The notes beneath the pieces are model-generated. The model made no database searches and was not told the DNA's origin. It worked only from the letters and a program-made list of their open reading frames with translations. The position numbers and the translations under genes are program-made. This document shows, piece by piece, positions 8,582-58,500 of a stretch of 63,451 nt of DNA (its first letter is position 1; each line of letters begins with the position of its first letter). Source of the DNA: Lentisphaerota bacterium (GTDB lineage Bacteria; Verrucomicrobiota; Kiritimatiellia; CAIQIC01; Lenti-01). Location: NCBI GenBank assembly GCA_012511885.1, contig JAAZFE010000124.1, positions 1 through 63,451 of the forward strand. Reading direction: 5' to 3'.

Positions 8582-8591
8582 GGAGCAGCAA

Positions 8592-20843: not shown

Positions 20844-20844
20844 G

Positions 20845-27398: not shown

Positions 27399-27960
27399 CG
27401 TGGCTGACTTTACGATCACGAATACAGCGCGCGGGATTGCCGCCGACAATCTGCCCGGAAGGCACATCGTGCAAAGCGACCGCGCGCACCCCCACCACGG
27501 CATCCACACCAACGGTTATTCCAAGATGGATATAGGCCTCGGCACAAATCCAGGCCCCATCGTCAATCCGGATTGGTGCGATTTTAAGCGGCATATTGGG
27601 ATGATCCACCTCATGCGTTGCGGCACACAAGAAAGCACGCTGGCTGACTGTGGCATGGGCGCCGATCTCAATTCTTGCCACATTATACAAGTCCACACCG
27701 TGGCTGATGGTGGCATAATCACCCAGGGATAGATTCCAAGGCGCCCAGATGCGTACGGAGGGCATGAGTTGGACTCCACGCCCCACTTGAGCGCCAAACA
27801 GTCGCAAGAGACAACGGCGAGGGGCATGCCAAAACCAGGGCGACGGCCGAAAGAACAGCGCCCAAACCACTTGCCAGAGCAAACGCCCCATCTTGTTGGC
27901 TGCCGAGTGAGGACTCGGGCATGCCAGGCGATCAGTCCTAATCTGAGAGGGCTTGGTCAT
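27391..27960 (-). CDS. Hexapeptide-repeat O-acetyltransferase (WcaF-like)
   Basis: VRIWAPWNLSLGDYATISHGVDLYN...IDDGAWICAEAYIHLGITVG...VGGNPARCI. Confidence 0.85.
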   Translation of the reverse strand: MTKPSQIRTDRLACPSPHSAANKMGRLLWQVVWALFFRPSPWFWHAPRRCLLRLFGAQVGRGVQLMPSVRIWAPWNLSLGDYATISHGVDLYNVARIEIGAHATVSQRAFLCAATHEVDHPNMPLKIAPIRIDDGAWICAEAYIHLGITVGVDAVVGVRAVALHDVPSGQIVGGNPARCIRDRKVSHDG

Positions 27961-43164: not shown

Positions 43165-45314
43165 GCCTCCTCCGGGACGGACATGACCGTTGGCCTGGCC
43201 TGATAGGCCTGGTAACCATAGCCGCCATAACGTCGATAATAATAATAGTTGGCAAAAGAGCTCAAGTTGACCCCATTGAGCACAATGCCGAGACAAGGCG
43301 TGCCGCTATCGCGCAACTTGACCATGGCGTGGCTTGCTCCCAGGCTGTGGGTGACCCCGTAGCGCACAACAAAGAGGACCCCGTCCACGTCCGGCAGCAA
43401 AACCAGGCTGTCGCTGACCCCAAGAATGGGCGGCGCGTCCACAATAACATGTTTGTAGATTTCTTTGGCCCCATTAAAAATATCCGCCAAAATTTTCCGT
43501 CCGAGCAATTCCGATGGGTGGGAAGGCAGGCGGCCCGCTGGCAGCGCATCAAGATGGGGAGTGGCGGTTGCCTGCACCGTATCACGCCAGTACATATGTC
43601 CTTTGAGCGCCTCAGCCAAACCGGGAGCCTGTGAAGGTATTCCAAATATCTTGGACAGGGATGGGCGGCGCAGGTCTCCACCGATCAGCAAGGTCCGGCG
43701 GCCATCGCGGGCCAGACTAATCGCCAGATTGCTGGCAATCAGAGATTTGCCTTCGCTGGGCCCGGCGCTGGTCACCATCACAACAGGCGCCTGCAAGATT
43801 TCACCTTTCAGCAACAGGCTGGCCCGCAACGTGCGGAAGGCCTCGGCGATCTCTCCAGACGACTTGAGCTCGGCAACTTGTCCGCGTTCACTATCGGTCT
43901 TGTCGAGGATCAACGGCACGGTCGCCAGAACCGGCAGCCCCAAAATGCGCTCGATTTCTTCACTGCGGCGGAAACGGTGGTCGGCATAATAAAAGAGAAA
44001 GATGGCGCCCAGGCCCAAAATGCCTCCGAATAGCGCGCCCCTGGCCAAAGCCTGTCCCATGCGCGGACGAAAGGGAATTTTGGCCGGTCGCGCCTCTTCG
44101 ACCAAACGGATGATGTCCGTAGGCAACGATTCCGAGATACTGGCCTCCTTCATTCGCGCCAAAACCGCGCGGTGAATTTCCTGATCGGTATCGATATTAC
44201 GCTTCAGTTCATTATAGCGAACCAGTTTGCGATCCAGCTCAAAGGCTTCTTGTTCCTGTTCGGCCAGCGCCTCTTGCAGGTGGCGCTCATGTTCCACAAG
44301 CACTTTATATTGCCGTTCAAGCGCATAGACCGCATTCGAGCAGGCCTGCTCGAGCTGATTCGCCAGTTTTTGCTCGGATTCAAGCGCCTGCTGAAGATCC
44401 GGATGCTGTTCACGATAACGCTGGCGCAGGTTCGCGATTTCACGGTTTTTCTCCTGAAGGCGCTGACGAGCTTGTTCCACCTCTCCCACACTCAACAAAG
44501 AAGCAATTTGAACCGCCGGCACACCGCTCTGCAGTTGCTGCTGAACATTTTTCCAGTTGGTTTCCGCCCGGATGCGTTCGGTCTGGGCAACCGTCAGTGC
44601 GGAATTCAGCGCCTTGAGCTTTTCGATCACAATATTCTGGTCATCTTCGAGCGATACCGATCCCGTCTGCTCGCGATATTCCTGGAGTTCGTGGAACCCT
44701 TTTTCAAGTTTTTGGCGATACTCCTCCGAGCGTTCATGCAACCAATCAATGGCCTGCATGGAGGCGCCCATGCGATTATCGAGGTCCTGCTGAATATAGG
44801 CTCCCGCCAACGCATTGGCCAAATCGCTGGCGATTTGGGGGTCGGAATGCTCGACCGTGATATTGATCATGCGGCTTTTTTCGATGGCGGTGATCGTGAC
44901 CCAGCCGCGAATACGATCCATCTTGGCTTCCACGCTGAGCCCGGGAAGAAAGCTGTCGCGATCGGCCAGACCGCTTTGCCGAAGGGCCTCGGCCAACATG
45001 CTGCGACTGTGCAACGCGTTGAGGTGCGTGTTAAAATACTCCAAATTCCGAATGTTGTACGCCATGAGATCCTGATAATTCAGGATTTTGGGGATCTGCG
45101 CTTCCACCATCAGCGTGGCCGTACTTCGGTAATAGGGAATTTGCCGTCGGGCCTGAAAGAAAAACAGCAGGAACACAATCACCGCCACGAACAGCCCGAG
45201 CCAAAACCGTTCGATCAAAATGGCCACACCTTCGCGCCAATCGAAGCGCCGCGTGGAGTCCAGATCGGCCTCGGCGCCTCCGGCAATATAGGGATTGGGT
45301 TTCATCGGGGGCAT
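43161..45314 (-). CDS. wzc: Polysaccharide co-polymerase / tyrosine autokinase (PCP-2a)
   Basis: Wzz-like N-terminus, long coiled-coil periplasmic region, Walker A TSAGPSEGKS, VIVDAPPILGVSD, and C-terminal Tyr cluster NYYYYRRYGGYGYQAY. Confidence 0.9.
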   Translation of the reverse strand: MPPMKPNPYIAGGAEADLDSTRRFDWREGVAILIERFWLGLFVAVIVFLLFFFQARRQIPYYRSTATLMVEAQIPKILNYQDLMAYNIRNLEYFNTHLNALHSRSMLAEALRQSGLADRDSFLPGLSVEAKMDRIRGWVTITAIEKSRMINITVEHSDPQIASDLANALAGAYIQQDLDNRMGASMQAIDWLHERSEEYRQKLEKGFHELQEYREQTGSVSLEDDQNIVIEKLKALNSALTVAQTERIRAETNWKNVQQQLQSGVPAVQIASLLSVGEVEQARQRLQEKNREIANLRQRYREQHPDLQQALESEQKLANQLEQACSNAVYALERQYKVLVEHERHLQEALAEQEQEAFELDRKLVRYNELKRNIDTDQEIHRAVLARMKEASISESLPTDIIRLVEEARPAKIPFRPRMGQALARGALFGGILGLGAIFLFYYADHRFRRSEEIERILGLPVLATVPLILDKTDSERGQVAELKSSGEIAEAFRTLRASLLLKGEILQAPVVMVTSAGPSEGKSLIASNLAISLARDGRRTLLIGGDLRRPSLSKIFGIPSQAPGLAEALKGHMYWRDTVQATATPHLDALPAGRLPSHPSELLGRKILADIFNGAKEIYKHVIVDAPPILGVSDSLVLLPDVDGVLFVVRYGVTHSLGASHAMVKLRDSGTPCLGIVLNGVNLSSFANYYYYRRYGGYGYQAYQARPTVMSVPEEA

Positions 45315-45326
45315 GTGCGCTGGCGG

Positions 45327-46403
45327 CTAAAAGAAAACTTGGGGAACCATAATGACATCGTTGGGCTCAAGAGGAAGGTCCGGCTGCTTGCGACGCTTGC
45401 TGAGCAGATCTGACACGCGGATTTTCATGGTGGTCTGGCCGCCATCCGGCAGACGGCGCACCAGGCTGATGCGATCCGGGCTGGCCAGATCAGTAAAGCC
45501 CCCCGCTCCGGCAATCGCTTGGAGCAAGGTCATGGTTTCGCCCACTTCCAGAGGATATACCCCCGGCTTTTTGACTTCGCCCAGCACCACGATTTGCGAA
45601 CTTTGCGTCGAGGCCAGCCGGAAGATCACCCGCGGATTCACCAGATAATCTTTGTTGAGCCGGCGTGTAAAATCCCGCTCAGCCGCTTCCAGGGTTTTGC
45701 CCGCCATGGGAACCGCCCCCAGCAAGGGGTGCCGGATCTCCCCGTTCAACCCAAGTTTGAATAGCCCGGACAGGTCCGGTTCACGATAAATCTGGATGTC
45801 TATTTCATCGTTGGGTTGCAAAATATGGATGGTGGTCTCGGCAGAAACAGGACTGTCCGGCGCATCTTTCTTGGCGGCTTTGGCGGTCGCCGCGGCCTTG
45901 GCTTCAGCGGCGGCCTGCCGTGCTTCCTGACGACGGGTCGCCTCCTCTTGCTTGGCAGCGGCAGCGGCTTCCTTCTTGGCCAACGCCGCTTGCTTGGCCT
46001 CTTCGCGCTGGCGCGCCTTTTCATCGGCCGCAGCTTGCTTTGCGGCCGCCGCCTCCTGTTTAGCCTCAAGAGCCGCTGCGCGTTGCTCCGCTTTGGTCAG
46101 GCGGGCCACGGTGACGGCCGCCTTGCCGGTCAGCGCCGATTCACTCTTGGCGGAGAGTGCTTTCTTTGGAGAGGGCGGCTTGGGGTCTGTTTTCTTTTGA
46201 ACCGATTTTTTTGCGGTAGTTTTCCGGGCCGCCGGCTCTTGAGATTTGGCCGGTTTCGCTGTTTTTACCTCGGTAGAACCCGCAGCCTGGGGATCAAGAA
46301 TACCGCTGGGCGGCAACGGCAACGGCCGGGGAGCAGTGCAGCCCGAAAAACCAGATATTACCGCCAGCAGCAGTAAACCATATCCGCCACGACGCCATAA
46401 CAT
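45327..46403 (-). CDS. wza: Outer-membrane polysaccharide export lipoprotein (Poly_export + SLBB) with a long K/A/E/Q-rich linker
   Basis: Lipobox LLLLAVISGFSGC and a low-complexity linker of about 150 aa. Then ILQPNDEIDIQIY...GEIRHPLLGAVPMAGKT...DYLVNPRV and VVLGEVKKPGVYPL. Confidence 0.85.
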   Translation of the reverse strand: MLWRRGGYGLLLLAVISGFSGCTAPRPLPLPPSGILDPQAAGSTEVKTAKPAKSQEPAARKTTAKKSVQKKTDPKPPSPKKALSAKSESALTGKAAVTVARLTKAEQRAAALEAKQEAAAAKQAAADEKARQREEAKQAALAKKEAAAAAKQEEATRRQEARQAAAEAKAAATAKAAKKDAPDSPVSAETTIHILQPNDEIDIQIYREPDLSGLFKLGLNGEIRHPLLGAVPMAGKTLEAAERDFTRRLNKDYLVNPRVIFRLASTQSSQIVVLGEVKKPGVYPLEVGETMTLLQAIAGAGGFTDLASPDRISLVRRLPDGGQTTMKIRVSDLLSKRRKQPDLPLEPNDVIMVPQVFF

Positions 46404-46483
46404 GGACCAACTCTCCACCACCAAACCTTTATATCATATTTATGGAGGATGGAAACAAGCAAATCGCTCCGCCGTCAAACGGA

Positions 46484-47773
46484 TCAATAGTTCCAACTGG
46501 CCCGCAACACCCAGCGGCCGTACTCATAAGAGGTTCTTTCCCGGGTATCTTCGCGGGCTTCACGACTGCCCCTCCGTTCCTGATAGGAATAGGCCAGACC
46601 CAACGAGAAATTCTGTTTGGTCCACCAGTCCAGACTCACGTTGAATCCCCAATAATTGTCGGTGCGTCCGTCGTACACACGGTCATCTTCCAGCACATGC
46701 CGCCCATGATACTCCACCCGGCCGAAATTGACAGAGGCCCCCCCGCGCAACCGCTCGATAAACAAACGCCGGGAAACACTGCCCGTAAGGCCTTGGTCAA
46801 CCGCATCCAGCCCGGTTTGATCCACGGCCGGACGGATATCCGCATACAACTCCAACCCGAAGGTGCTCAAACCCATGGGCGAACTCTCCGCACTGACCGA
46901 GGCAACCCAATTTTCATAATCCGCGCGCCCCGCGTCATCATACGTGCGCCACATGTAGCCGACGCGCCCCGACGAAGAAAACTTGGGCGATTGTTTGCCC
47001 CGCACCCCGATGGAAAGATCATAGTAATCGGCCGCGCTGACGTTGTCCCGCTGGCGCCGGGGCTCATCCCGCCCTACTCCACCCTGGAAAAAACCTTCGC
47101 TTTTAGCCGTCACCCGGTGATACAGACGGCCAGCGCCATAGTAACGGTCATAGGTCACATAGCGGTCGTCATCAAAGTCATGCCGTTCCACGCGCCCGAC
47201 GGCGCCGAGGCTGGATTTGCCGGAAACGCGATGTTCCAGGTTCACATCCGCAAAATAGTCCTGCCGCGCAATGCGCGCCCCCACGAGCAAATCCACCTGC
47301 TCGACATAACGCAGTCCAAGCTGGCTGTTGATCTGTGTTTTGGGCCCGCGATATACCATCCCCAGCCGCAACAGATGGCTGGGCTTCTCATCCACCACAT
47401 CGTGCTCGCTGTGATAGATGGGCACGTTGATGCCGTAATCCGCGAAGAGATGATTGTTGGCCGGGCGGCCCCAGATGGCCAGCATCCCCGCCGCCAAATC
47501 CACCGTGGTGAGCGGCGTTTTCTTATCGGGATCGAGGAAGATATTATCCTCCTGCACCACCGCCAGCGTCACCCGCGGCAAAACGGCGCCGGTGGTCTTG
47601 GCGGGGATATAGAACGGATCAAACACAGCCCCGCCCTGATCCAGATAATAGGCCGCCTCGACGCCACGGGTATAAAACCCCGCGGAGAAGGAATCACTTG
47701 CCGCCCAGCTCCCGGCGGGAACCGCCAGGAACAGGATGAAGAACGCGCCAAGTTCTGAAAGTCGGCGCCTCAC
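46484..47773 (-). CDS. Putative outer-membrane beta-barrel protein of the export locus
   Basis: Signal peptide MRRRLSELGAFFILFLAVPAGSWA, alternating beta-strand-like pattern with frequent Y/G/R/D, and a C-terminus LRASWNY ending in an aromatic residue. GTGA overlap with the upstream gene. Confidence 0.55.
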   Translation of the reverse strand: MRRRLSELGAFFILFLAVPAGSWAASDSFSAGFYTRGVEAAYYLDQGGAVFDPFYIPAKTTGAVLPRVTLAVVQEDNIFLDPDKKTPLTTVDLAAGMLAIWGRPANNHLFADYGINVPIYHSEHDVVDEKPSHLLRLGMVYRGPKTQINSQLGLRYVEQVDLLVGARIARQDYFADVNLEHRVSGKSSLGAVGRVERHDFDDDRYVTYDRYYGAGRLYHRVTAKSEGFFQGGVGRDEPRRQRDNVSAADYYDLSIGVRGKQSPKFSSSGRVGYMWRTYDDAGRADYENWVASVSAESSPMGLSTFGLELYADIRPAVDQTGLDAVDQGLTGSVSRRLFIERLRGGASVNFGRVEYHGRHVLEDDRVYDGRTDNYWGFNVSLDWWTKQNFSLGLAYSYQERRGSREAREDTRERTSYEYGRWVLRASWNY

Positions 47774-49665
47774 CGATTCCCCTCCAGGAATCGGAAGCCT
47801 TGAATCAGCTCTACCTCCCGCTCATTGTAAGGCTCGCCATCGGCCTTGAGCACATTCTGTTGCCATAGATCGGGCTCTTGGTCCGACCGGTATTGGGGCT
47901 GTTGAATTTCCAACTGGGTTTTGCCAGCCACCAAACCGCGGTTGAACCACCCCACGCGATACACCGAAAAAAGCGGCAGCATAGTGTCAAAATCATTGCC
48001 GGTCTGGCGCATCAGCCAATCCGAACAGATGATGGGCCGCTGATGGCGTTGCAGAAGTTTCAGCCGGGCCTCCACGCTCTCGACATGGTCGAAGCCTTGG
48101 AAGGCAATCAAATCGGACCGCTCCAGTTTGCGGGCGGTCATCGCACCGCCGAAATCGTGCCAGGCCGATACCGCCAGCGGCTGGGACGCCTCAATTGACC
48201 GCGCCCAATTGAACGTTTGATCCATCAGGGGCAGACTTTCTTCGCCCAGTCCGCTGTTGCCCGCGGTGTTGTACAGGTCCCAATAGAGCACCCGCCCGTC
48301 CCGCCGGAACTTGCGCATGACCTCTTTGACATATTTTTCCAGCTCAGGCCATTGTTCGCGATCGGCAACCGCCGAAGGCGCCGGGCTGGGCACCCACCGG
48401 CTGTTGTGCTCTCCGGGCACCGGCTCGGGCTGCGGCCCCACCACGGGGGCCTGTCCGGCCATGTCCAAATCGTCGAACAGCACGGGCACCACCCGCTGGC
48501 CATGCTTGTTCGCCAGGGAAAGCAGCTTGTCCACCCGATCCAGAAAACCATCCGAATCGTTTTGCCAGACCTCAAACGACAACTGCACGCGGATCGCGGT
48601 ATAGCCCGCCTTGCCCGCCCAACCGAGTTCCTCATCCATAGTGTCGGCATCGAATGTGTCCTTGCACCACATTTCAATCGCATTGACCGCGGTGCGCGGC
48701 ACGTAGTTGACGCCTTTGATCGGGCCCAGCTGGTTGTACCAGTTCCAGAGGCGTTCCTGCCCCCAGCGCCCCCCGGGCTGGCCTTCGGCCGGGCGCGGCA
48801 AAGCCGCGGGCAGTTCAACCGACACCGTGGGGCGGACAATCGGACTGGCATCGGTCACCAGTGCGCCGCCATCCATCTGATAAAACGGCGTGGCCAATCC
48901 CAGGTAGCGTCCAAGGCCGGCCCGGTCCAAACCCTGTATATGGTCCAGGAAAGGTTCCAAATCAGCGAAATACACATTGCACAACTCGAACGTGTGCAAC
49001 TCGGGATGAATGGCCACCTGCTCGGTTTGCAATTCAGCACGTTGCTGCTCCGCCGAGAAAAACAGCGACGCCGCGCCCCCGGCTTCAATTTCGGCCCGCT
49101 CGCCGTTCCGGGAAACCACCGACAACTCAAAGTCGTCGCAATAGACGTCCCAGTTCTCCTTGCCTCGCTGGGCCACCACAAACGCCGCCCCCTGCGCTTC
49201 AACGGTGCCGGCCGCGGTTTCCACCTGAATATCCAGCATGGGCGACGGCGCCCCCGCCTGCACGCGCACCCGCCCCCGATGCAATTGGATGTGAATGCGC
49301 CGAATCAGATCTTCGTTGCTCTTGGGCAGGCCATCGGCCGTATGCCGCAGTTGCCTGAAGGTCAACTCTGTTTGCGGCGCCACGCAAATGATGGCGCCGG
49401 GCGAACACACCATGCAAAGCTGGCCGTCGCGTCCGGTCATCACCCGGGAATGTTCGCCAACCGCCGCGCCTTCGAACAGGTCGCGCACGGTTGTGGCCCC
49501 TTCGTGCACCGGCCCCGTAAAGACACGCACCGTGGCTTTGCCGGTCATGGAGGCCACCACCGCCTCTCCCGTCGGCAGGGCCCCGGCTGCGGGACCGGCC
49601 CAGGCCAACATCATCGCCACCGCACTCCAACGCGCCAGCCATAAAACAGGATTTGTTTTGTTCAT
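47770..49665 (-). CDS. Secreted FecR-like domain fused to a TIM-barrel glycoside-hydrolase-like domain (clan GH-A-like)
   Basis: The ATG at 49665 gives signal peptide MNKTNPVLWLARWSAVAMMLAWAGPAAGA. FecR-like GKATVRVF...MTGRDGQLCMVCSPGAIICVAPQTELTF. C-terminal GVNYVPRTAVNAIEMW...GYTAIRVQLSF...VLYWDLYN. Confidence 0.6.
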   Translation of the reverse strand: MNKTNPVLWLARWSAVAMMLAWAGPAAGALPTGEAVVASMTGKATVRVFTGPVHEGATTVRDLFEGAAVGEHSRVMTGRDGQLCMVCSPGAIICVAPQTELTFRQLRHTADGLPKSNEDLIRRIHIQLHRGRVRVQAGAPSPMLDIQVETAAGTVEAQGAAFVVAQRGKENWDVYCDDFELSVVSRNGERAEIEAGGAASLFFSAEQQRAELQTEQVAIHPELHTFELCNVYFADLEPFLDHIQGLDRAGLGRYLGLATPFYQMDGGALVTDASPIVRPTVSVELPAALPRPAEGQPGGRWGQERLWNWYNQLGPIKGVNYVPRTAVNAIEMWCKDTFDADTMDEELGWAGKAGYTAIRVQLSFEVWQNDSDGFLDRVDKLLSLANKHGQRVVPVLFDDLDMAGQAPVVGPQPEPVPGEHNSRWVPSPAPSAVADREQWPELEKYVKEVMRKFRRDGRVLYWDLYNTAGNSGLGEESLPLMDQTFNWARSIEASQPLAVSAWHDFGGAMTARKLERSDLIAFQGFDHVESVEARLKLLQRHQRPIICSDWLMRQTGNDFDTMLPLFSVYRVGWFNRGLVAGKTQLEIQQPQYRSDQEPDLWQQNVLKADGEPYNEREVELIQGFRFLEGNR

Positions 49666-49692: not shown

Positions 49693-50157
49693 ATGGCCTG
49701 TCTCATGCTGACCCCTCCCGTTATCGTCACGTTGCTTCTCGAACAACACACGCCAGTCACCTTTCGCGCCAGCGGCCCCAGCATGAATCCCACCCTGCGC
49801 GATGGCGATGTGGTTCAAGTTGTGCCCCCGCCATCCGGGCCCCTCAAGCTGGGCAGCCTCGTGCTCTATCGTCTGTACGGCCGCCTGGCCCTGCATCGGG
49901 TCGTGCGCCGGGATTGCCGAAGCCAACGTTGGTTCATTGTCGGCGACGCGGCCGTCGCAGGCGGCGACTGGATAGCAACCGCCGACATCCTCGGTCTGGC
50001 CACACGCGCTCACCGTCAAGACCGGGTCATTTTGCTGGCCACCCGTCGCGTGCGCTATGCGGGTCGGCTCCGCTTCGCCCTGCGCCCATTGCGGCGCGCG
50101 CTGAATCTGGTGCGACAAGCGCTTCATGCCAGCACCTCTTCCCGCAAGAAAGGGTGA
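49693..50157 (+). CDS. Small S26-family (signal-peptidase-like) serine peptidase, apparently Ser/His (ER/archaeal/SipW) type
   Basis: N-terminal hydrophobic segment, GPSMNPTLRDGDVV (Ser box) and LALHRVV (His where bacterial SPase I has Lys). ATG at 49693; the ORF track starts at TTG 49669. Confidence 0.6.
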   Translation: MACLMLTPPVIVTLLLEQHTPVTFRASGPSMNPTLRDGDVVQVVPPPSGPLKLGSLVLYRLYGRLALHRVVRRDCRSQRWFIVGDAAVAGGDWIATADILGLATRAHRQDRVILLATRRVRYAGRLRFALRPLRRALNLVRQALHASTSSRKKG

Positions 50158-51029
50158 CCGCCCTCCAATAAAGCGACCACATCCGGGGTCCGCCTGAAAA
50201 ACAGCTTGTGGCACGGAACATCCTGCGCGAGCTGATTCAGGCCATCGAGAATCCCCTGACTCCAGGAATCTTCGAACCAGGGCACCGCCGCCACATCCAG
50301 CAAAGCCATACGAATCTGGCTCTCGGGCATCGGCTCCAAACGATCCGTCAATGCCTGGTGCAAAAAGTGAATGTTCCCCAGCGGCACCTCGTCGGGTTCA
50401 GCGTAGCGTTCGGAACCATGCCACGGCGTACCGGCCACGCGCCACTGCCCCTCGCGACGAAATACCACCACGCGGTCATCGTTCAAAATCCGCCACCCAT
50501 TCGCCTCGAACAGCCGGGCGATCGTGGATTTGCCTGCCCCGCTGCGCCCCGTAAACACCTGCCCCACTCCATCGCGCACGGCCACCGACGCATGCAGCAG
50601 CACCCCCCCAACCTTGGCCAGCAATCCCCAGGCCAGAATCTGGTCCAGCGGATACCGCAGGGGCTTGATGCAATCTCCACTCGCCCAGGCGGCGGGATGC
50701 AACCACAACTCCGCTGCGGTAAAGTCGCGCGTGACCCGACAAGACAACCGTTGTTCCTCGGGCGCTTGCAGCCCCACGTGGATGATCCAATCCGAGGCAT
50801 CCTCCCAAATCGCCCAGTGGTTCGGCGCCAACCATAGTGGCGCGCGCGTGGGGCACGGCTCGAAACCGCACACCACCTCCACGGGCAGACGCGCCAGCGC
50901 ATTCCCGGTATCCGTCGAGTGCGCAAAGAACCCGGCATAGGCCGGATCGTCATAGCACAACGCGCCCGGCGCGGTGCTGCGCAAATCAAAGCACAGCGGA
51001 CCGATTTCCAGATGTCCGGTTCTGCTCAC
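50124..51029 (-). CDS. HPr-kinase C-terminal-domain-like P-loop protein (HprK-related kinase)
   Basis: LLHASVAVRDGVGQVFTGRSGAGKSTIARL...NDDRVVV...GTPWHG. GTG start in a GTGA overlap with the peptide ORF stop. Confidence 0.7.
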   Translation of the reverse strand: MSRTGHLEIGPLCFDLRSTAPGALCYDDPAYAGFFAHSTDTGNALARLPVEVVCGFEPCPTRAPLWLAPNHWAIWEDASDWIIHVGLQAPEEQRLSCRVTRDFTAAELWLHPAAWASGDCIKPLRYPLDQILAWGLLAKVGGVLLHASVAVRDGVGQVFTGRSGAGKSTIARLFEANGWRILNDDRVVVFRREGQWRVAGTPWHGSERYAEPDEVPLGNIHFLHQALTDRLEPMPESQIRMALLDVAAVPWFEDSWSQGILDGLNQLAQDVPCHKLFFRRTPDVVALLEGGHPFLREEVLA

Positions 51030-51211
51030 GAGCCCCCCATAAAGATTCGAAACGGAGGCCCCACGCAGGTCGTATCACTGTCCATCTTGCACGAAATGGA
51101 CAGTGTTTCCGTCAAAGCCAAATCCACCCGTTTGATGTCGGGCTTTTCATAGGGCCGTCGGATCACCAACGGCGGGTGTTCCCGCGCCGGGAATGGTTTA
51201 TTCGCTTTCAT
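51026..51211 (-). CDS. Candidate RiPP precursor peptide (61 aa): MKANKPFPAREHPPLVIRRPYEKPDIKRVDLALTETLSISCKMDSDTTCVGPPFRIFMGGS
   Basis: ATGA overlap with the rSAM stop and GTGA overlap with the kinase start. GGAGAG lies 6 nt upstream of the ATG. Leader-like YxxPxI...T motif, 2 Cys in the C-terminal half, C-terminal Ser. Confidence 0.55.
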   Translation of the reverse strand: MKANKPFPAREHPPLVIRRPYEKPDIKRVDLALTETLSISCKMDSDTTCVGPPFRIFMGGS

Positions 51212-52269
51212 ACATTGCTCTCCATTGCCGCGCGATAGCGAAGCTGCGCCGTGCGCCGCATATAATCCGATTCTTCTTCCTCCCGGCCGGTTTCCATCCG
51301 GTTGACCGCAGGACAATGCGCGCAGGCGCCGCGCTCGTCGCCGGTCAGGCAGGTGTCCGTCCGCGTCCAGCGCCGCTCTTGAATGGCGCCGAGTTCCTGC
51401 TCCCAGATTTCGGAGAAAGAACGCCCCGCCGACGCCCGGGCATAGGGTTCCGCCAGGATGCAGGGAGAAAGGTTTCCAAAGGGGTCGGCGTGAAAAGCCG
51501 TCCGCCCCGCGGAGCAGGGGTATAGGCGCTCGTCCGGCGGAACCGCCAGAACTGCTTCAATGCGCTCGCGCCATTGCTTCTTTTGATACGGCGCAGCCAA
51601 GTCCGCCAGCACCGCTTCCTCCGGCGAAATCCGCAGATCCAGCGGCGCCCGCGATCCCCCCTCCAGACAGGGAAACAGCGCCGAATCGTGCCGGAAGGGA
51701 ACTCCGCACCCGGCCGCCTGGCGCTCAAGCTCTTCGAGCTCGGCCAAGTTGGACTTCATCAGCACGGTTTTCAGCTCCACGCGCACGCCCGCCGCCAGCA
51801 GGCGGCGAATCCCCTCCCAGGCGCGACGATGCGATCCGGGATGGCCGGTAATGCCGTCATGCGTGGCGGCCGTCGCGCCATACAGGCTGATTTCCACCTT
51901 GCGCGGCGGATACTCCCGGAACAGCGCCGTGATCTGCTCCGTCACCAGCGTGCCGTTGGTGAACACCGTCACCACCAGGCCCAGCTCGCGGGCATGGCGG
52001 TAAATCTCCGCAAAGTCCGGCCGTAGCAGCGGCTCGCCGCCCGTCAGGGTCAGATAGAGGCATCCGGCTTCGGCCCACTCGGTAAGCGCCTGTTTGACGG
52101 CACCAGTATCCAGCTCGCTCGGCTGCCGGCGGTGCTGTTCGACCTGATCGCCCAGATAGCAGTGAATGCAGTTCAAATTGCAGCGCCGGGTCAGTTCGAG
52201 CGTGGCGGCAATGGGAATGCGCGTTTCCGTGGCACGGGCGCGGAAGGCCTGGTTCCACTCGCGGGTCAT
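51208..52269 (-). CDS. Radical SAM enzyme with a C-terminal SPASM/twitch-like Cys-rich domain (peptide maturase type)
   Basis: ELTRRCNLNCIHCY (CX3CX2C). C-terminal CSAGRTAFHADPFGNLSPC and CLTGDERGACAHC. ATG at 52269. Confidence 0.85.
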   Translation of the reverse strand: MTREWNQAFRARATETRIPIAATLELTRRCNLNCIHCYLGDQVEQHRRQPSELDTGAVKQALTEWAEAGCLYLTLTGGEPLLRPDFAEIYRHARELGLVVTVFTNGTLVTEQITALFREYPPRKVEISLYGATAATHDGITGHPGSHRRAWEGIRRLLAAGVRVELKTVLMKSNLAELEELERQAAGCGVPFRHDSALFPCLEGGSRAPLDLRISPEEAVLADLAAPYQKKQWRERIEAVLAVPPDERLYPCSAGRTAFHADPFGNLSPCILAEPYARASAGRSFSEIWEQELGAIQERRWTRTDTCLTGDERGACAHCPAVNRMETGREEEESDYMRRTAQLRYRAAMESNV

Positions 52270-52286
52270 CGTCTGGAGATCGCAAC

Positions 52287-52568
52287 TCACGTCATCACCT
52301 CCAACATGCCCCGCCGCACAAGCTCTTCGGCAAACTCCACGCAATCGTTGCGGGCCTCCGCCAGCTCCACGTCAAATTCACTTGAGAGCGCCCCGGCCGT
52401 GACCTCGACAGATACCCCCCGGGCCAGACGCGACCAGATGAACTCGCCCGTTTCATTTAGCGGAAACACACAGCTTTCGCGGGCCAGATCGCCGGAAACA
52501 GGAACCAGCAGGCGGTCCGCGCCAATTCGGCGCAAAACAATTTTCCCTTTTGGACGGTATGTCGCCAC
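52287..52568 (-). CDS. PqqD-family protein (RiPP recognition element-like)
   Basis: IVLRRIGADRLLVPVSG...VFPLNETGEFIWSRL...LSSEFDVELAEARNDCVEFAEELVRRGML. The GTG at 52568 lies 17 nt after the giant gene stop; an ATG at 52637 would overlap that gene by 52 nt. Confidence 0.7.
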   Translation of the reverse strand: MATYRPKGKIVLRRIGADRLLVPVSGDLARESCVFPLNETGEFIWSRLARGVSVEVTAGALSSEFDVELAEARNDCVEFAEELVRRGMLEVMT

Positions 52569-52585: not shown

Positions 52586-55500
52586 TTAATGTTGAATGGC
52601 CTCGAGGCCGACAAACACACGTCCGTTGGCCGAGCACGGCACACGCGCCCGAATGGTCTCCATCACCTCATCGGGGTCCACCTCCACGTCAAGGATGACG
52701 ATCTCTTCATCGGCAGGCCTCCACGTCACCAGGTCATCCGATATCAACAAGCGGTAGTCCACATCGAGGCTTCGGGCGCGCTGACGCCACTGCACGACAA
52801 GCTCCTCATCATCGCAGGTTGGACATGTACTGCCGCCCTGGGGCTTGACGTCCACTCCCCCCTCCACCGGCTCGACCATGCCATCGTTGTCAAACGCGTA
52901 GACATAGAATCGCTCAGGCGTAGCCGCACTGACTTCCGGATCGGCCAGCTCATCAGGGCTGAACCGTTCCCAGCGCCACTCGGCAAAGTTCTCGGCGATG
53001 CCGCCATCGCCCCGGTTGTTGGCAATGCGCAGCGCCGGATCGCCCAGCAGGTTGTACATGGCATAGGTGGTGAAACTGAACTGGTTGTGCTCCACGCTGC
53101 GCAACGCCTCCAGAACGGCCGGCCCCAGCGTGCCAACCTTCTTCTGCAGCACGACATCGTAGAACGCCAGTCCCAGTTCCTGCGCCAGCTGGTTGTCGGA
53201 GAGACCGGAAGGCCCCCACGCTGCCACCGCGCCGCTGCCGGGTGCGCGCAACAGCGCCTCGCCAAGGCTTTCAATGTTCGGCAAAGGATCCTCGTGATGC
53301 CCGACCAGGCAGCTCAACGCCACCACCAGCATCGGGTACTCGGCATTTTGCAATCCGGGAGCATCCGACGACGCGAGCACATGCTCATTCCAAGCCTGCG
53401 CCGAGCCATGGCCGGTATAGTGCACCATGCCAGCGCCAGTCCGGATGGCGCTGGTCAGGGTGGTTTTCGCCGTCTTGGCATTCATCGCCCTCCGGTCAAT
53501 CCGGATCACCTCGCGTTCCGGTCCGGCCAGCCCTTCGAGAGCGTCATTGACGTCCCCAAAATCGCCCGCAAGCGCATCGGCCTTATCCGAAACCAGCACC
53601 CACCGGCCCAGCCAGTCGCTGCCAAAGCTTTGCTCATATACCTTGATTTTGGCAATCATGGCCGCCAGGTCGCCCGCATCGCGCGCGGGCAGTCGGCCAA
53701 CCGACGCATTCGGAAGCCCGTCGCCATGGTAATCCGTCAATAGGTTGTCGCTCGAGAAAAACCCGTTGTCGGTCTGCACCAGCAGCGGCGGGATATGGTT
53801 GCCGCCAAAATTCTGCGTATCCAGGAAATCATAGTGCCCGCTGCCCGCCAGCAACACCATCCAGGGCGCCTGCGCCCAGGTGGCGTTGGCATACGCCAGC
53901 AGCTCGGAAATGGCCTCCGGCGTGCGCAGGCCACCTGCCATCCAGTCGCACAGGTCCTCGAAGGTCGCCACCCCCACGCGCAGTCCCTGGCTGGCGCGAT
54001 AGTCGGCCAATTCCTGCACCGCCGCCTCCAGTGCGCGCGAAACCACAATCAGATAATCCACGCGGTTGTCGGGGGTCATGAACCACGGATCCTCCGCCAC
54101 CACCTCCAGCGGCAACTGCGGAAGTTCCGCCCATTCCTCCAGAGCATAACGCCGGTCGCTCGACGACGACGCCCAGGCCTTGTTCGGCAGGCCACCATCC
54201 TCGTCCGCAATCCACACGGGCCGGTCATACCGATCCAGCGCCACCACCAGCGGCTGCGTGAAGGCGGGCGCCGCATAGGCGGACATCTTGCCCGGTTCAT
54301 GGAACACCGGATTCCCCTCGGGGGTCAGCTCGCGCGCAAAGGTGGCCTCGATCCAGTTGACCACAAAAAAGCTGTACGAGTGCCCCTCTTGGAGCACACC
54401 CTTCACCTCGAACGTGTTGAGCCCGTTGCTCGCCAGAGTAATCGGCGCCAGCAACTCAACCGTGCACACTTCCTGATCGTCGAAAGTCGCCGATCCGATC
54501 CATTCGCCATTGAAGCGGAACTCGGCCAGGTGGTCCGGCCCGCCTGGCGTGCTCGACCAGCCCTGCAAGCTAACCTTGATCGCCACATCGCTGCCGGCAA
54601 AGCCCCGCAAATCAAGCGGGAACGACTTCACCGAGGCGGCATTCTCCGTAGGAGCGCTGATCACATAATCCCAGTAATAGAAATCGTCCGGCAGGTTGTT
54701 CACTGTGTTGAGATAATAGTTGTCCTCCTCGAAGCGCACCCGCGCAGGCAACACATCGTCGCCGTGCGTCGCGCCCGGCTCGCGCCGCGTCATGCTCTGC
54801 CCGTCGCCAACGGAAATCATTACGACATTGCCGCGCGCGTACCAGTTGTCGGTGGCCCGACCGTGGAAAATCAGGCGACCGTTGACCGCGTCATGGATGG
54901 ATGGCACCACGTCGCCCTCCACCGACAAGGCCAGGCGTTGCGCGTGAGCCAGCGCCTCCACGGCTTCCAGTTCCTGCCCCATGCCCTCGGCAAGTTCCGC
55001 CAGACTCAGGGCATAGAGCCCCGCCTTGGGATAGGACGCCTTCAAGACGCTCGAAGGCCCTGCCAACCCGACAGGCGCGGCCGGTTTGGCCAGAACGGCG
55101 CGCTTCCGCGACGAATCGGCCGCCGCCGCGCGAGCCGCCAAAGCCGCGGGCGGTGGCGCGCCAAACGTGAGCTCGTACGTGCCGAGATCATTGACCATGC
55201 CTGACATCTCGACCTCCTCGAGACGGTACCAGCCGGTGCCGCCTGCTTCCGCTTGCGGGTCCTCCCACTCGTACAGGCCACCGGCAGAACTCAGCACCGA
55301 CGTCACCAGCCGCGGCGTCACCAGCTCCCCGGCATCGTCCTCGCCGGCAAGGCGATAAATCCGGAAGCCGGCCGTATGCCACTCCGAATCCGTTTGCCAT
55401 GCGACAACCCCGGCGTCCCCGCGCGCCTCGCCCCACACATCCACCAGGGTCACCCGCGTCGGTTTCAATGGTATCAGCCCCAAATCAATCGTCAGGTTGG

Positions 55501-58500
55501 TTTCCCAGGCCCGCAAGCTAAACGGGTCGGTCACGGCCAGGCGTTCGGTGCTCCTGGTTTCTTGGAGCTCGGGATTGCTGTCCAGCGCGGGATCGTCGCC
55601 CTGATATCGCGGCGACACCCCCACCCAGGTGGAACGCCCGGTGAGGTCAAAATGAATCGTGTAAACGCCGGGCACGACATCCGTGAACAGATAGTTCCCG
55701 CCGGCATCGGTCAGCATCTCGTCCACCACCTCGTTCTTCGCGTTGACCAAATACACCGGCAGCCCCTCAATCCGCAGCTCTTCTTCCGGGTCCTGGATGC
55801 CGTTGCGGTTGGCGTCAAACCACACCAGATCGCCCACCACGGCTCCGCCCTTGGGAATCACCACCACGCTGCTCGTGTCGTTGTTGGGGTTGGGGTCGAA
55901 CAAGTCCCGGCTGGTGATCGTCGCGGTGTTGGTAATGCGCAATCCGGCATATTCGCGGGCGGTCACGCTGATATACAGCGTGGTCGAAGCCCCCACCCCC
56001 AGCGTGCCAATATCCCAAATGCCGGTCGCCCGGGTATAGTTGCCGTTCGAGTGGCTGTTGTATTGCAGACCGCCCGAGGGCAGCACGTCGGTGATCTTGA
56101 CGCCTGTGGCCACATTCGGCCCATTGTTTGTAGCGGTCAAGATGTACTCAATCATCTCCGCCTGGTCGGGATCCTCCTTGGTCACGGTTTTGAGCACGCC
56201 CACATCCGCCGACACCACGCAATTGGTCGCCACGGCGGACAGCGCCGGATGCATGGCGCTATAGACACTGGCACGGTTCGTCAGGGCGTTGCTCACCGGC
56301 GGCGAATCCGCCGTAACCTCGAACGTGAAGGTGGCCGTTTCGCCCACGCCCAACGTGCCCCCGCTCCACAATGCGGGCGGAGCGCCCACCGTGCCCTCGG
56401 GCGCGGTAGCATACCACACCACCACGCGGCCCGCCGCACCGGCGCCGCCCGCATAGGTGGTGCTGGAAAACGTGGATGTCTTGACAGCGCCGCCCCCGCC
56501 CCCACCGGGTACGCTCCCGGGGCTGCCGCCACCCTGCGAGGTGGCGCCGCCCCCGCCATTCCCGCCGCCCGGAGGCGCGGCCGCGCCCGCCGAACCCGAC
56601 GCGTTGTTGCCCGCCGCGCCCGGTCCCGCCGAAGATCCGCCGCCGCCGCCATAGCTCGTGCCCGAGCCGTTAGCCCCGCTGCCGCCGCCGTAACGCACAT
56701 CGCCCACGCCAGCGTTCGCCGCCCCGCCCGACGCCCCGGCATCGCTGTTGTTGGAGGTTCCGTTCCCGCCCTTTGCCAAGACCAGATCGGTGGTTCCCAG
56801 CCTAAACCGGGAATCCCCTCCGGCGGCATTGGCGCCGCCGCCCCCGCCCACCTGCACCGAATAGCTGGCGCCGGGACTTACGCTGAAATCACGCCGGCTG
56901 TAGGCGCCGCCGCCGCCCCCCCCGCCCGCGCCCGTATTGAATATTCCTGAGCGCGAAGCTCCACCGCCACCACCGCCCCAGGCCTCCACCCTCACCTGTC
57001 CGACTCCCGCCGGAACGGTGAACGTGCCGTTCGCGTTGAAGGTGACCGACGTCGTGAACTCCGGCGAATAAAACTGAACCGCCACACTGCCGGGCACATA
57101 CGTCACCCCGGCGGGAAGCATGTCCTCGACCATAATGCCGGCCTGCTCCACATTGCCGGTGTTCGCCACCACAACCGTATAGCTGATGGTGTCGCCCGGC
57201 GACAAACAGGCACCCGTCTGGCTCGAATTCTTCGTGATCGTCAGGCCGCGAACCTCCGGAACGAAGCCCGCGTCCCAGCTCAGGTCATTCACCCCCACCG
57301 GCAGATAAAACACCTCCGTGCGGCCCGTCAGCGGCGAGGCATCGCTGTCCAGCTCGCTGTCCGCCCCCTGGTTCTGCAAGGTATGGGCATAGCCTTCCGG
57401 CGCCTCGAACTGCAGATAGTAATACCCCGCCGCCAGATTGGTGAAACTATAGTACCCGTTGTCGGTAACCGTCGTCGCCACCTCGTTGTCGTCGGCGTCG
57501 TAAAGCGTCACCACCACCGGCGGGAGTCTGGACTGGAATAAATCATCCTGAATCCCGTTGCCATTCACATCGTGCCAAATATAATTGCCCAGCGACGCCG
57601 GCGGCTGGTAGAGCCCCGCATCGCGCGTGGTGTCATTCGTGCCGCCGCTCAGCGTGAACACCGCCGTGCGCCCGGTCGCCGGCGAAATATCGCTATCCAG
57701 CGCGGAATCGCCGCCCTGTCCCTGCGGCGACACGGCATACGCCGACGGCACCTCGAACTCCAGGAAATACGATCCCGAAGGCAGGTTGGTGAAAGCATAA
57801 GCGCCCTGCGCGTCGCTGGTCGTCGTGTCCAGCAGCACGCCCGATGCGGCATACAGCAGCACCTCCACGCCGCCCAGACCCGGTTCGCCCTCCTCCTGAA
57901 TGCCATCGCCGTTCAGGTCGAACCACACCCGGTCCCCCACCGAGTTGGCGACGGAATAGTTGGTGGCCGTAGCCTCGAGAGGTGGTCGCTGATCCATCGT
58001 CAGCGTGGCGGTATTGACAAATTGCGTGCTCACCAGCGGATACCCCAGGGTCGCCGCCAGCCCCACCGTGATCGTCTCGCCGGGGTGGATGGTGATGTCC
58101 GTCAGCAGATTCGGCGGATCCTCAACCGTCAGCAATTCCTTGTCCGTATAGCGGATCATCACCATGCCCGCCGCGCCCGCGCCGCCGGTGCGTGTGCCGC
58201 TCGTGCGATAAGCGCCGCCGCCCCCGCCGCCCGGCGTACTCCCCGCCGTGCCGTTGCCTTGCGAACCGCTGCGCCCGTCTCCGCCATTGCCGCCGCCGGC
58301 GGGCGCAATCGCCCCGGCAGAACCGCTGGCGTTGTTGCCCGCCACCTGGGTGCCGGCCGAGGACCCCCCGCCGCCGCCGTAAGAACGGTCAACCCCGTTG
58401 GCGCCATTGCCGCCGTCATAACCAACATCGCCAATACCGCCGGAAGCCCGCCCGCCCGCCGCGCCATTCCGCGCGTTTTGCGCCGCGCCGCTTCCCCCGC

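Follow-up and report, generated by a model that had tools for sequence, protein, structure and literature searches.

The 63,451-nucleotide stretch of contig JAAZFE010000124.1 of a Lentisphaerota bacterium (GCA_012511885.1), analysed here over its whole length and referred to as the window, carries on its minus strand a compact cassette in which genes for a PqqD protein, a radical SAM (rSAM) enzyme, a 61-aa peptide and an HPr-kinase-like protein are translationally coupled. An S26-type peptidase gene converges on the kinase gene, and a giant gene lies immediately before the cassette. The features considered in this work are the following.

52586..62722 (-), giant secreted surface protein (3378 aa) with a C-terminal Peptidase_C25 domain, a conserved neighbour and likely functional partner
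52287..52568 (-), PqqD-family protein (93 aa), the predicted leader-binding RRE chaperone
51208..52290 (-), radical SAM enzyme (360 aa) with CxxxCxxC and a truncated SPASM or twitch-like C-terminal region
51026..51211 (-), precursor peptide (61 aa) with a variable N-terminus, an RRPYEKPDI leader motif, an ETL-SIS-CK junction and the core CKMDSDTTCVGPPFRIFMGGS, ending in Ser
50124..51029 (-), HPr-kinase-like P-loop protein (301 aa), Pfam 'ScmC' family, the predicted peptide Ser kinase
49693..50157 (+), S26B (SEC11/archaeal-type) signal-peptidase-like protein of about 150 aa, the predicted leader peptidase; its start is uncertain (49669, 49693 or 49705)
41848..49665 (-), conserved downstream neighbours: FecR-like protein (47770-49665), porin-like protein (46484-47773), Wza (45327-46424), Wzc-like protein (43161-45314) and Wzy_C (41848-43296)
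19698..21041 (-), NTP_transf_5 nucleotidyltransferase (447 aa) at the far end of the co-directional polysaccharide array, a candidate distal component

Gene boundaries and coding evidence

All five cassette ORFs described in an earlier note were confirmed, at essentially the coordinates given there. The giant gene stops at 52588-52586, and the PqqD ORF starts 17 nt later at GTG 52568. The 61-aa ORF overlaps the rSAM stop as ATGA and is preceded by GGAG, whereas the kinase-like ORF overlaps the 61-aa ORF as GTGA. The note had placed the rSAM start at 52269, after a 17-nt gap; however, the enzyme most likely starts at GTG 52290, which has a GGAGG Shine-Dalgarno sequence and a GTGA overlap with the PqqD stop. 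Independent gene calls also give 360 aa, so there is no such gap.

The S26-like ORF overlaps the kinase gene by 34 nt, and orthologues favour a length of about 150 aa. Although gene callers sometimes replace it with a long antisense ORF, substitutions against three orthologues peak at its third codon position (89/79/78, versus 60/57/60 at position 1 and 46/47/52 at position 2), and the ScmC gene, used as a control, shows the same pattern. In L003 (related loci are numbered L001 onwards), the alternative frame carries stops. The S26 gene is thus real. We note that it lies on the opposite strand in subtype I, so that co-regulation is not obvious, and that no promoter or terminator signal exceeds chance; in L021, L026 and L028, however, it is co-directional with ScmC.

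Conservation and genomic context

The arrangement is far beyond chance, since the whole block is syntenic in many independent loci, and all five genes recur together in Lentisphaerota/Kiritimatiellia, Verrucomicrobia, Nitrospira and an Acidobacteria-like genome. The 61-aa ORF, present as a single copy in the window, is strongly conserved, with 378 homologues in a word-indexed search and 664 representatives at 50% clustering in an exhaustive search, and belongs to an unnamed precursor family. It matches no NCBIfam or Pfam model and has no hydrophobic segment. Y21, P24, E35, C41, C49 and S61 are invariant, and codon-position mismatches of 64/49/125 indicate purifying selection. Of 143 short members of the family, 141 carry [YFW]xxPx[LIVMF] and 139 end in Ser, with 2 or 3 Cys after the motif; the core is hypervariable in length and sequence across the superfamily, but highly conserved within the Lentisphaerota/Kiritimatiellia-type relatives. 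The weak candidate precursor of L012 ends in Gly.

Two genomic links, which the earlier note did not report, became apparent. Firstly, the cassette almost always abuts a C25-peptidase protein. In the window, Peptidase_C25 was detected at 6.8e-64 at residues 2890-3233 of the giant protein, together with SdrD_B, DUF11 and Gly_rich_2, and the YTGHGS and ALSC motifs are present. A C25 protein abuts the cassette or precursor in the window, L001-L004/L028, L010, L026, L027, L029/L030 and L032, and one ORF (P0391) is a C25 ORF that reads through into a precursor. The link is not universal, being absent within 10 kb in L021/L022 and not found in L006 or L009. Secondly, the cassette usually sits with polysaccharide genes and an NTP_transf_5 nucleotidyltransferase. 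The order of the downstream neighbours, identified by Pfam, is the same in L001-L003, L023, L027 and L030. The NTP_transf_5 protein (PF14907, 6.5e-31) lies 29 kb away from the cassette in the window, but homologues lie next to the kinase gene in L006, L008, L010, L021, L032 and in the Firmicutes/Sphingomonas kinase loci L017-L020.

This context could suggest that the kinase-like and nucleotidyltransferase proteins act on the polysaccharide or on the C25 surface protein, with only PqqD and the rSAM being peptide-directed. Indeed, the association with Wza, Wzc, Wzy_C and Bac_transf loci is found across phyla, and includes an rSAM-less PqqD, NTP_transf_5 and kinase trio in a Bacteroidales capsule locus. 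We consider this unlikely, since the overlap between the precursor stop and the kinase start (GTGA) is a conserved coupling, the characterised relatives of this kinase type act on peptides, helped by the RRE (PMC8498205, PMC10368454), and L026 and L028 carry the cassette without polysaccharide genes.

Family assignments of the cassette proteins

The PqqD protein scores 1.3e-12 against Pfam PqqD, above the gathering cutoff, and is called as 93 aa in independent assemblies; NCBI names it 'PqqD family protein'. Its best NCBIfam hits are lasso PqqD chaperones, ScmD and GeoRSP PqqD, all far below cutoff. The rSAM carries CNLNCIHC and hits Pfam Radical_SAM at 2e-24. The note had described its C-terminal Cys-rich part as SPASM/twitch-like; this part is a truncated SPASM or twitch-like region, with four conserved Cys (C259, C277, C323, C326) and no Pfam SPASM hit at E<=0.01. 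C37/C41/C44 are invariant, C259 and C277 (CX12GX4C) and C326 are conserved, and C323 is conserved in subtype I; the auxiliary-cluster region is degenerate, with 4 conserved Cys in subtype I and 3 in subtype II. By sequence, the enzyme is nearest to peptide maturases among solved structures, namely SkfB (1.5e-17) and PqqE (3e-17).

The resemblance to PqqE raises the possibility of a cofactor-type pathway like PQQ or mycofactocin, in which the peptide would be a sacrificial scaffold and a small molecule derived from its C-terminal residues would be cut out. PqqD plus an rSAM is the grammar of those pathways, the top NCBIfam hit of the rSAM is the mycofactocin maturase, there is no exporter, the C-terminal residue is invariant, and the core is highly conserved among the close homologues. 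However, all those scores are far below cutoff (121 bits against 265), and the hypervariability of the core across the superfamily is unlike cofactor precursors. In addition, there are no accessory redox or tailoring genes such as MftD/E/F or PqqB/C, and the kinase and the SEC11-like peptidase have no counterpart in cofactor pathways. This alternative thus appears improbable.

The kinase-like protein has at least 493 homologues and carries PF27840, which a newer Pfam names ScmC after the SynChlorMet cassette, a computationally defined system. H146, G161, G164, G166, K167, S168, D184 and D185 are invariant and match the catalytic set of lasso peptide kinases, including that of BsfK, in identity and spacing (PMC10368454). 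The AF2 model has a pLDDT of 91.5, and its Foldseek hits at E<=0.001 are only HprK/P and PEPCK.

The ScmC assignment, together with ScmD, ScmE and ScmF in the hit lists and a PqqD, NTP_transf_5 and kinase trio of the HPr-rel-A type in L008, could indicate simple membership of the SynChlorMet (Scm) or HPr-rel-A systems. Nevertheless, no curated NCBIfam model is passed by any of the five proteins or by distant relatives, and every equivalog cutoff is missed by a wide margin (ScmC 39.5 of 125, ScmD 20 of 100, ScmF 91 of 400, ScmE 74 of 400, HprK_rel_A 33 of 200). There is one rSAM here, not two, and the Scm cassette appears to have neither an identified precursor nor an S26 peptidase. NCBI annotates the kinase-like and S26-like proteins as hypothetical, and does not appear to annotate the precursor in this MAG, and no paper in the literature searched mentions ScmC together with radical SAM. 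We therefore regard it as doubtful that the cassette is merely a member of an already defined system.

The S26-like family profile hits SEC11A/C at 4.5e-10 over the nucleophile, His and Asp motifs. H64, R65, G80 and D81 are invariant, and the nucleophile is Ser or Cys; the Ser-to-Cys swap with His kept in L021 and L026 argues for real catalysis. Position -3 relative to the first Cys of the core is S, A or G in 120 of 120 close homologues, and position -1 is G, S, A or T in 110 of 120, although in subtype II the residue before this Cys is V or I, which does not fit a signal-peptidase -1 rule.

A proposed peptide-maturation pathway

The earlier note had proposed a hybrid system, in which radical crosslinking and Ser phosphorylation would act on a lasso-like precursor in the absence of a lasso cyclase. 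None of the tests that it set out refuted this reading, and the lasso-like character of the precursor is better supported than could be known from the sequence alone. YxxPx(L/I) lies 17 residues before a plausible cleavage site, with Thr at the lasso -2 position (Y+15) in 108 of 120 close homologues; in lasso systems YxxPxL lies at -17 to -12, and discrete RREs bind a YxxP sequence (PMC10368454, PMC10664482).

We also considered an ordinary phosphorylated lasso-peptide cluster with its cyclase and B2 protease encoded elsewhere in the genome, the rSAM being only a tailoring enzyme. The leader, a core starting with Ser and carrying Asp at positions 7 and 9 in the window peptide, the discrete PqqD, the kinase catalytic set and NTP_transf_5 are all lasso-like. 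However, Pfam scans revealed no Asn_synthase (PF00733) and no Transglut_core3 (PF13471) in the window, and nine Pfam-annotated related loci across several phyla (+/-10 kb) have no PF00733. PF13471 appears only in L032, which carries rSAM, precursor, PqqD, ScmC, NTP_transf_5 and Transglut_core3 (the lasso B2 family), the latter taking the place of the S26-like protein, with no cyclase. This shows that the two peptidase types are interchangeable and that the lasso accessory set occurs with an rSAM. An acidic residue at core positions 7-9 is not conserved across the family (L003, Nitrospira and subtype II lack it), and the rSAM is translationally coupled between PqqD and the precursor and is present in every locus with a detected precursor. 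As these are MAGs and metagenome contigs, a distant cyclase gene cannot be excluded, but this explanation seems very unlikely.

We favour, with moderate confidence, an RRE-dependent peptide-maturation (RiPP-type) pathway acting on the 61-aa ORF, in which every chemical step, as well as the biological role, is inferred. The PqqD protein would bind the conserved leader (RRPYxKPx(I/L)...E-T-L) in the way lasso B1 proteins bind YxxPxL leaders, and present the peptide to the rSAM, which most likely cross-links the core through one or both invariant Cys, giving a thioether as in SkfB and the sacti/ranthipeptide maturases; given its degenerate auxiliary-cluster region, its chemistry could differ from thioether formation. 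PqqD would also present the peptide to the HPr-kinase-like protein, which most likely phosphorylates the invariant C-terminal Ser, as the paeninodin and pseudomycoidin kinases do. Lasso kinases phosphorylate the C-terminal Ser of the precursor before folding, and a nucleotidyltransferase then glycosylates the phosphate (PMC8498205); the phosphorylation site proposed here is nevertheless a guess, since BsfK phosphorylates Ser3 and not the C-terminus (PMC10368454). The SEC11-like Ser(Cys)-His-Asp peptidase would remove the leader, in place of the lasso B2 protease, the likely site being at or near the small-x-small junction (S-x-G) just before the first Cys. The NTP_transf_5 nucleotidyltransferase may then decorate the phosphate. 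The product is not a typical exported antibiotic, as there is no RiPP-type exporter and the core is highly conserved within the Lentisphaerota/Kiritimatiellia-type relatives; the ties to a giant C25-peptidase surface protein and to polysaccharide export genes suggest that it probably works with the cell envelope.

When compared to known systems, the HPr-rel-A system (TIGR04352, TIGR04353, TIGR04355, plus a nucleotidyltransferase) likewise combines an HprK-related kinase, a PqqD-family chaperone and a nucleotidyltransferase, often within polysaccharide loci among those examined here (L008), but has no rSAM and apparently no described precursor. The Scm cassette, defined only by models TIGR04248-04251 and for which we found no experimental work, combines a PqqD-like protein (ScmD), rSAM/SPASM protein(s) (ScmE/F) and an HprK-like protein (ScmC); the window differs in its single rSAM with a truncated SPASM, its identifiable precursor family and its dedicated peptidase. 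Mycofactocin and PQQ pathways share a discrete PqqD chaperone working with an rSAM on a short peptide, the lack of an exporter and an invariant C-terminal residue, but differ by the features described above.

In sactipeptide/ranthipeptide maturation (SkfB, AlbA, PapB and similar), an RRE-guided rSAM also acts on a Cys-containing core, and SkfB, the nearest solved structure by sequence, has a twitch-type single auxiliary-cluster domain. The window enzyme, however, has no full seven-Cys SPASM motif, its RRE is a separate protein rather than fused to the enzyme, a kinase and a signal-peptidase-like protease are present, and the genes lie in a cell-envelope rather than a bacteriocin context. Lastly, phosphorylated lasso peptides (paeninodin, pseudomycoidin, Bsf type) differ in that no lasso cyclase occurs in the window or in any related locus examined, a SEC11-type peptidase occupies the role of the B2 protease in the window, the rSAM is a core member, the core carries invariant Cys residues, and there is no ABC exporter of the lasso D type. 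What is shared with them is the discrete PqqD-type RRE, the YxxPx(L/I) leader with Thr (or Val) two residues before the expected cleavage site, the H-G-G-G-K-S-D-D catalytic set of the HPr-kinase homologue, the C-terminal Ser of the precursor, an NTP_transf_5-type nucleotidyltransferase in the neighbourhood and, in L032, a B2-type peptidase.

Gene calls and coding frames

The ORFs were found where the earlier note had placed them, with three corrections, and the order of features is as follows.

52586-62722 (-), giant 3378-aa secreted protein with SdrD_B, DUF11 (called 'CLIPPER' in newer Pfam), two Gly_rich_2 regions and a C-terminal Peptidase_C25 domain; stop codon at 52588-52586
52568-52287 (-), PqqD ORF, starting at GTG 52568, 17 nt after the stop of the giant gene
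GTG 52290 (-), probable start of the radical SAM (rSAM) ORF, which carries CNLNCIHC
51211-51026 (-), 61-aa ORF, the predicted precursor, overlapping the rSAM stop as ATGA and with GGAG upstream
51029-50124 (-), kinase-like ORF, overlapping the 61-aa ORF as GTGA
49669, 49693 or 49705 (+), possible starts of the S26-like ORF, which overlaps the 3' end of the kinase gene by 34 nt

Pfam supported PqqD (1.3e-12) and Radical_SAM (2e-24), and gave sub-threshold hits to Hpr_kinase_C and Peptidase_S24. The first correction concerns the rSAM start, which the earlier note had placed at 52269; GTG 52290 is more probable, since it has a GGAGG Shine-Dalgarno and a GTGA overlap with the PqqD stop, and independent gene calls give 360 aa. 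Secondly, the C-terminal region described in the note as SPASM/twitch-like is truncated, with only C259, C277, C323 and C326 conserved and no hit to Pfam SPASM. Thirdly, the start of the S26-like gene is uncertain.

Gene callers disagree on the S26-like gene, one assembly having a 150-aa reverse gene and two others a 785-aa fused forward ORF. GC content by codon position could not separate the S26 frame from its mirrored antisense ORF, and we thus employed a codon-position substitution test. Substitutions against three orthologues peak at the third codon position of the S26 frame, as they do in a control gene, and in L003, a related locus with the same gene order, the alternative frame has stops. 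The S26 gene is therefore real, and on this evidence we rejected the possibility that a long 814-aa ORF is the real gene in its place. A promoter and terminator scan found nothing above chance.

In a Lentisphaerota (Lentisphaerae) MAG whose contigs carry the five proteins with identical sequence, NCBI names them 'PqqD family protein', 'radical SAM protein', 'hypothetical protein' (kinase-like) and 'hypothetical protein' (S26-like). The protein accessions run consecutively from NLB66343 to NLB66344, so the 61-aa ORF appears not to be annotated in that record.

Precursor family and genomic context

A profile of eight precursors found 378 database proteins of 45-69 aa, none with a descriptive name or a Pfam domain, and an exhaustive HMMER search of 1.84 billion representatives found 664 (clusters at 50% identity) at E<=1e-3, nearly all of 41-80 aa. 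Among the 143 short members listed, 141 carry [YFW]xxPx[LIVMF], 139 end in Ser, and 87 have two Cys and 53 three Cys after the motif. The general layout is a variable N-terminus, then (R/K)(R/K)PYxxPx(L/I)..(I/V)xL...E(T/V)L(S/A)xGCK, then a core that is hypervariable in length and sequence, and G-S at the C-terminus. Within the Lentisphaerota/Kiritimatiellia-type relatives of the window the core itself is conserved (CKLESDxxCVGPPITAYEGGS), whereas subtype II (Acidobacteriota, Thiolapillus) reads KKPYxxPRILSREPLEAxAxxCS...C..GPISS. Six positions are invariant in both alignments (Y21, P24, E35, C41, C49 and S61), and codon-position mismatches of 64/49/125 show purifying selection. The peptide has no hydrophobic segment, and so it has no signal peptide. 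We note that three long repeat proteins (P0260, P0327 and P0376; 854-1823 aa) with many copies of an RPYKSPEIEGISL-like motif match the leader part of the profile, but this is probably chance resemblance. The context of protein P0323 was only a 697-bp contig.

The kinase-like protein has at least 493 homologues. The order giant C25 protein, PqqD, rSAM, small ORF, ScmC (the kinase-like protein), reverse-strand S26, FecR-like, porin, Wza, Wzc, Wzy_C, Wzm, Wzt recurs in the related loci L001, L002 (Verrucomicrobia UBA1418), L003, L023, L027 and L030, and a similar arrangement is seen in L033. Other arrangements also keep the set. The Nitrospira loci (L004/L028) have C25, PqqD/rSAM, peptide, ScmC and a peptidase on one strand, and Acidobacteria-type loci (L021/L022, L026) have peptidase, ScmC, PqqD and rSAM as one operon, with the precursor convergent. 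L010 and L011 show ScmC, rSAM and a convergent precursor (plus PqqD in L011), but no clear peptidase hit. L006 and the Thiolapillus locus L009 have ScmC and rSAM followed by the precursor, with PqqD detected between them only in L006. A pattern search for precursors missed L006 and L012; an HMM found the former, and the latter weakly.

Some links to neighbouring genes had not been reported in the earlier note. A Peptidase_C25 protein abuts the cassette or the precursor in the window, L001-L004/L028, L010, L026, L027, L029/L030 and L032, with L021/L022, L006 and L009 as exceptions, and homologous giants precede the cassette in most related loci. Notably, L026 has no polysaccharide genes at all. 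The giant protein of the window keeps the YTGHGS and ALSC motifs. On one 474-kb contig there are two precursor copies: one (L029 10001-10156) lies between two giant C25 genes (3300 and 3353 aa), and the other (L030 9819-10004) lies inside the cassette that follows the second giant gene. In P0391, a 714-aa metagenome protein, a C25-type ORF runs without a stop into a subtype-II precursor sequence (...KKPYEPPRIVSREPLEAVAAVCSPPGKANPGACPTGPISS), which could be a true fusion or a read-through gene call.

The second link is to polysaccharide genes. The minus-strand array of the window, from 47 kb down to 19.7 kb, encodes Wza, Wzc, Wzy_C, Wzm/Wzt, eleven glycosyltransferase-family genes and an initiating GT4. 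The array ends with an NTP_transf_5 gene, which has no NCBIfam hit and whose homologues lie next to the kinase gene in L006, L008, L010, L021 and L032, as well as in the Firmicutes and Sphingomonas kinase loci L017-L020. In a Bacteroidales capsule locus (L008 8125-10600, Candidatus Cryptobacteroides), a trio of PqqD, NTP_transf_5 and a ScmC-like kinase sits between Bac_transf and Wza/Wzc, without any rSAM and with no precursor detected by our profile. Across the glycosyltransferase part of the array (16000-46000) GC content drops to 0.51-0.59, against 0.60-0.66 in the flanks, the cassette and the giant gene, and this may reflect horizontal acquisition of the sugar genes. Features within and around the array are the following.

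41848-43296 (-) and 16099-17397 (-), two Wzy_C (O-antigen ligase/polymerase-like) genes, one with DUF5935
30565-32874, 27957-29408 and 20845-22287 (-), three ORFs (769, 483 and 480 aa) inside the array with no Pfam hit at 1e-4
19698-21041 (-), NTP_transf_5 (PF14907) gene
17644-19272 (+), malonate decarboxylase alpha-subunit gene (2e-227), alone between the two polysaccharide gene blocks and on the opposite strand
6654-9611 (-), three adjacent mevalonate-pathway-type genes, a diphosphomevalonate decarboxylase-like gene and two GHMP kinases

Lasso-like features and the predicted enzymes

Published work places YxxPxL at -17 to -12 of lasso leaders, with Thr (sometimes Ile or Val) at -2, shows that the RRE accelerates the kinase BsfK, and lists the kinase catalytic set as H148, G163, G166, G168, K169, S170, D186 and D187 (PMC10368454). 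Discrete RREs (PF05402) bind a YxxP-containing sequence, the lasso cyclase is PF00733 and the leader peptidase is PF13471 (PMC10664482). The paeninodin and pseudomycoidin kinases phosphorylate the C-terminal Ser of the precursor before folding, after which a nucleotidyltransferase glycosylates that phosphate (PMC8498205). The window matches these reports in its discrete PqqD and in its leader, where YEKPDI is present and the residue 15 positions after the Tyr is Thr in 108 of 120 close precursors. The kinase-like protein has H146, G161, G164, G166, K167, S168, D184 and D185 with spacing identical to that of BsfK, all invariant in 20 sequences, and its AlphaFold model (pLDDT 91.5) matches only HPr kinase/phosphatase and PEPCK structures at E<=0.001. 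A kinase acting on non-peptide substrates fits less well, although it is not excluded.

No lasso cyclase was found in the window. All plausible ORFs of the window were scanned with Pfam, and none hits PF00733 or PF13471; nine Pfam-annotated related loci also lack PF00733. A cyclase encoded at a distance fits the data less well, but is not excluded by these scans. The most informative relative is L032, with the order giant C25, rSAM, precursor, PqqD, ScmC, NTP_transf_5 and Transglut_core3 (PF13471), the only locus in which the latter was present. This is the lasso accessory set (B1, B2, K, N) with an rSAM and no cyclase. It also shows that the S26-type peptidase and a B2-type peptidase occupy the same role in different relatives, and this is our main argument that the S26-like protein is the leader peptidase.

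Although the single S26-like sequence falls below the Pfam and NCBIfam cutoffs, a profile of nine orthologues hits the human ER signal-peptidase subunits SEC11A and SEC11C at about 5e-10 (4.5e-10), with a match that covers GxSMxP, HR(V/I) and (K)GD. A single-sequence AlphaFold model of this protein was unusable (pLDDT 37.8). H64, R65, G80 and D81 are invariant. In the subtype-II versions from L021 (12634-13071, -) and L026 (12409-12771, -) the nucleophile Ser is replaced by Cys (GDCMAP, GGCMTP) while the His and the GD motif are retained, a swap expected of a working catalytic centre. A membrane anchor is doubtful, since a hydrophobic stretch (KD 2.08) appears only if the window gene starts at TTG 49669, and the N-termini of the orthologues are not hydrophobic by inspection. 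Just before the first invariant Cys of the precursor, position -3 is S, A or G in 120 of 120 close homologues and position -1 is G, S, A or T in 110 of 120, which fits the small-x-small rule of signal peptidases; subtype II, however, has V or I at -1 and an AxA two residues upstream. Cleavage could thus occur either at the lasso-like ETL|S or at SxG|C.

The solved structures nearest to the rSAM by sequence are SkfB (thioether-forming, twitch domain) and PqqE. With two or three conserved Cys in the substrate, thioether cross-linking is the most economical guess, but it remains a guess, and the degenerate auxiliary-cluster region leaves other chemistry possible. We also considered Cys oxidation of the anaerobic sulfatase-maturase type, but no such model appears among the best 25 NCBIfam hits of the rSAM, and no sulfatase is nearby.

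Interpretation and comparison with known systems

The best reading is an RRE-dependent peptide-maturation pathway derived from, or sharing parts with, lasso systems, which would produce a Cys-cross-linked peptide phosphorylated on its C-terminal Ser and possibly phosphoglycosylated; these steps are inferred from homology and context. There is no dedicated exporter, the core is conserved among close relatives of the window, and the neighbourhood recurs, which suggests that the role of the product probably concerns the giant C25 surface protein and/or the exopolysaccharide. A more far-reaching reading, which we regard as tentative, is that the cassette defines a new RiPP class derived from lasso machinery, which keeps the RRE, kinase, nucleotidyltransferase and YxxPxL leader but replaces the cyclase with a radical SAM cross-linker and the B2 protease with a SEC11-type peptidase. 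In this reading the phosphorylated (possibly phosphoglycosylated) peptide is a dedicated cell-envelope component rather than an antibiotic, and could be a cognate inhibitor of the adjacent giant C25 surface peptidase, its substrate, or a covalent linker between it and the polysaccharide made by the downstream genes.

If the inferred chemistry holds, this would be a RiPP family combining radical cross-linking with Ser phosphorylation and, to our knowledge, the first to use a eukaryote/archaeal-type signal-peptidase homologue as its leader peptidase. It would also show that the lasso recognition, kinase and nucleotidyltransferase parts can be separated from the cyclase and reused. The family spans Lentisphaerota/Kiritimatiellia, Verrucomicrobia, Nitrospira, Acidobacteriota and a gammaproteobacterium, and is almost entirely unannotated. 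Its usual placement next to giant C25-peptidase surface proteins and polysaccharide export genes points to a structural or regulatory role in the cell envelope, which is unusual for RiPPs, and would give a testable handle on the function of these giant proteins and of the HPr-rel-A/Scm-type modules, which have stayed unexplained since they were defined computationally.

No curated NCBIfam model is passed by any of the five proteins, and distant cassette members and ten diverse precursors also pass nothing; the 61-aa ORF hits nothing. The best hits for PqqD are lasso PqqD chaperones, followed by ScmD and GeoRSP PqqD. The top hits for the rSAM are the mycofactocin maturase MftC (121 bits, cutoff 265), haem and NirJ enzymes, and ScmF, while PqqE scores 86.5 of 381. 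The mycofactocin and PQQ precursors have characteristic C-termini (Val-Tyr, or Glu/Tyr), whereas the precursor here ends in Gly-Gly-Ser, and a cofactor-type pathway fits less well, without being excluded. When compared to the sactipeptide/ranthipeptide rSAM-SPASM maturases, the rSAM carries CxxxCxxC but not the full seven-Cys SPASM motif (two auxiliary clusters), the full CX2CX5CX2C part occurring only in L006 and L012. For the HPr-rel-A system (TIGR04352/04353/04355), HprK-related kinase A scores 33.1 of 200 and kinase B 23.7 of 200, and the PqqD of the window gives no PqqD_rel_X hit.

The nearest named entity is the computationally defined SynChlorMet cassette (TIGR04248-04251). A Pfam release newer than the one we scanned tags the kinase-like protein and all 120 listed homologues, in precomputed annotation, as PF27840, named 'ScmC'. 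No publication describing this precursor family or gene set was found in the literature that we could search. Plain membership of the Scm or HPr-rel-A systems is not excluded, but fits less well: the scores are 39.5 of 125 for ScmC, 20.1 of 100 for ScmD, 74 of 400 for ScmE and 91.2 of 400 for ScmF, and a single rSAM gene is found in the window and in the related loci, against two paralogous rSAM/SPASM genes in the SynChlorMet cassette. We place the gene set with the RRE-dependent rSAM RiPP systems, from which it differs in its unusual parts and its unusual biological setting.
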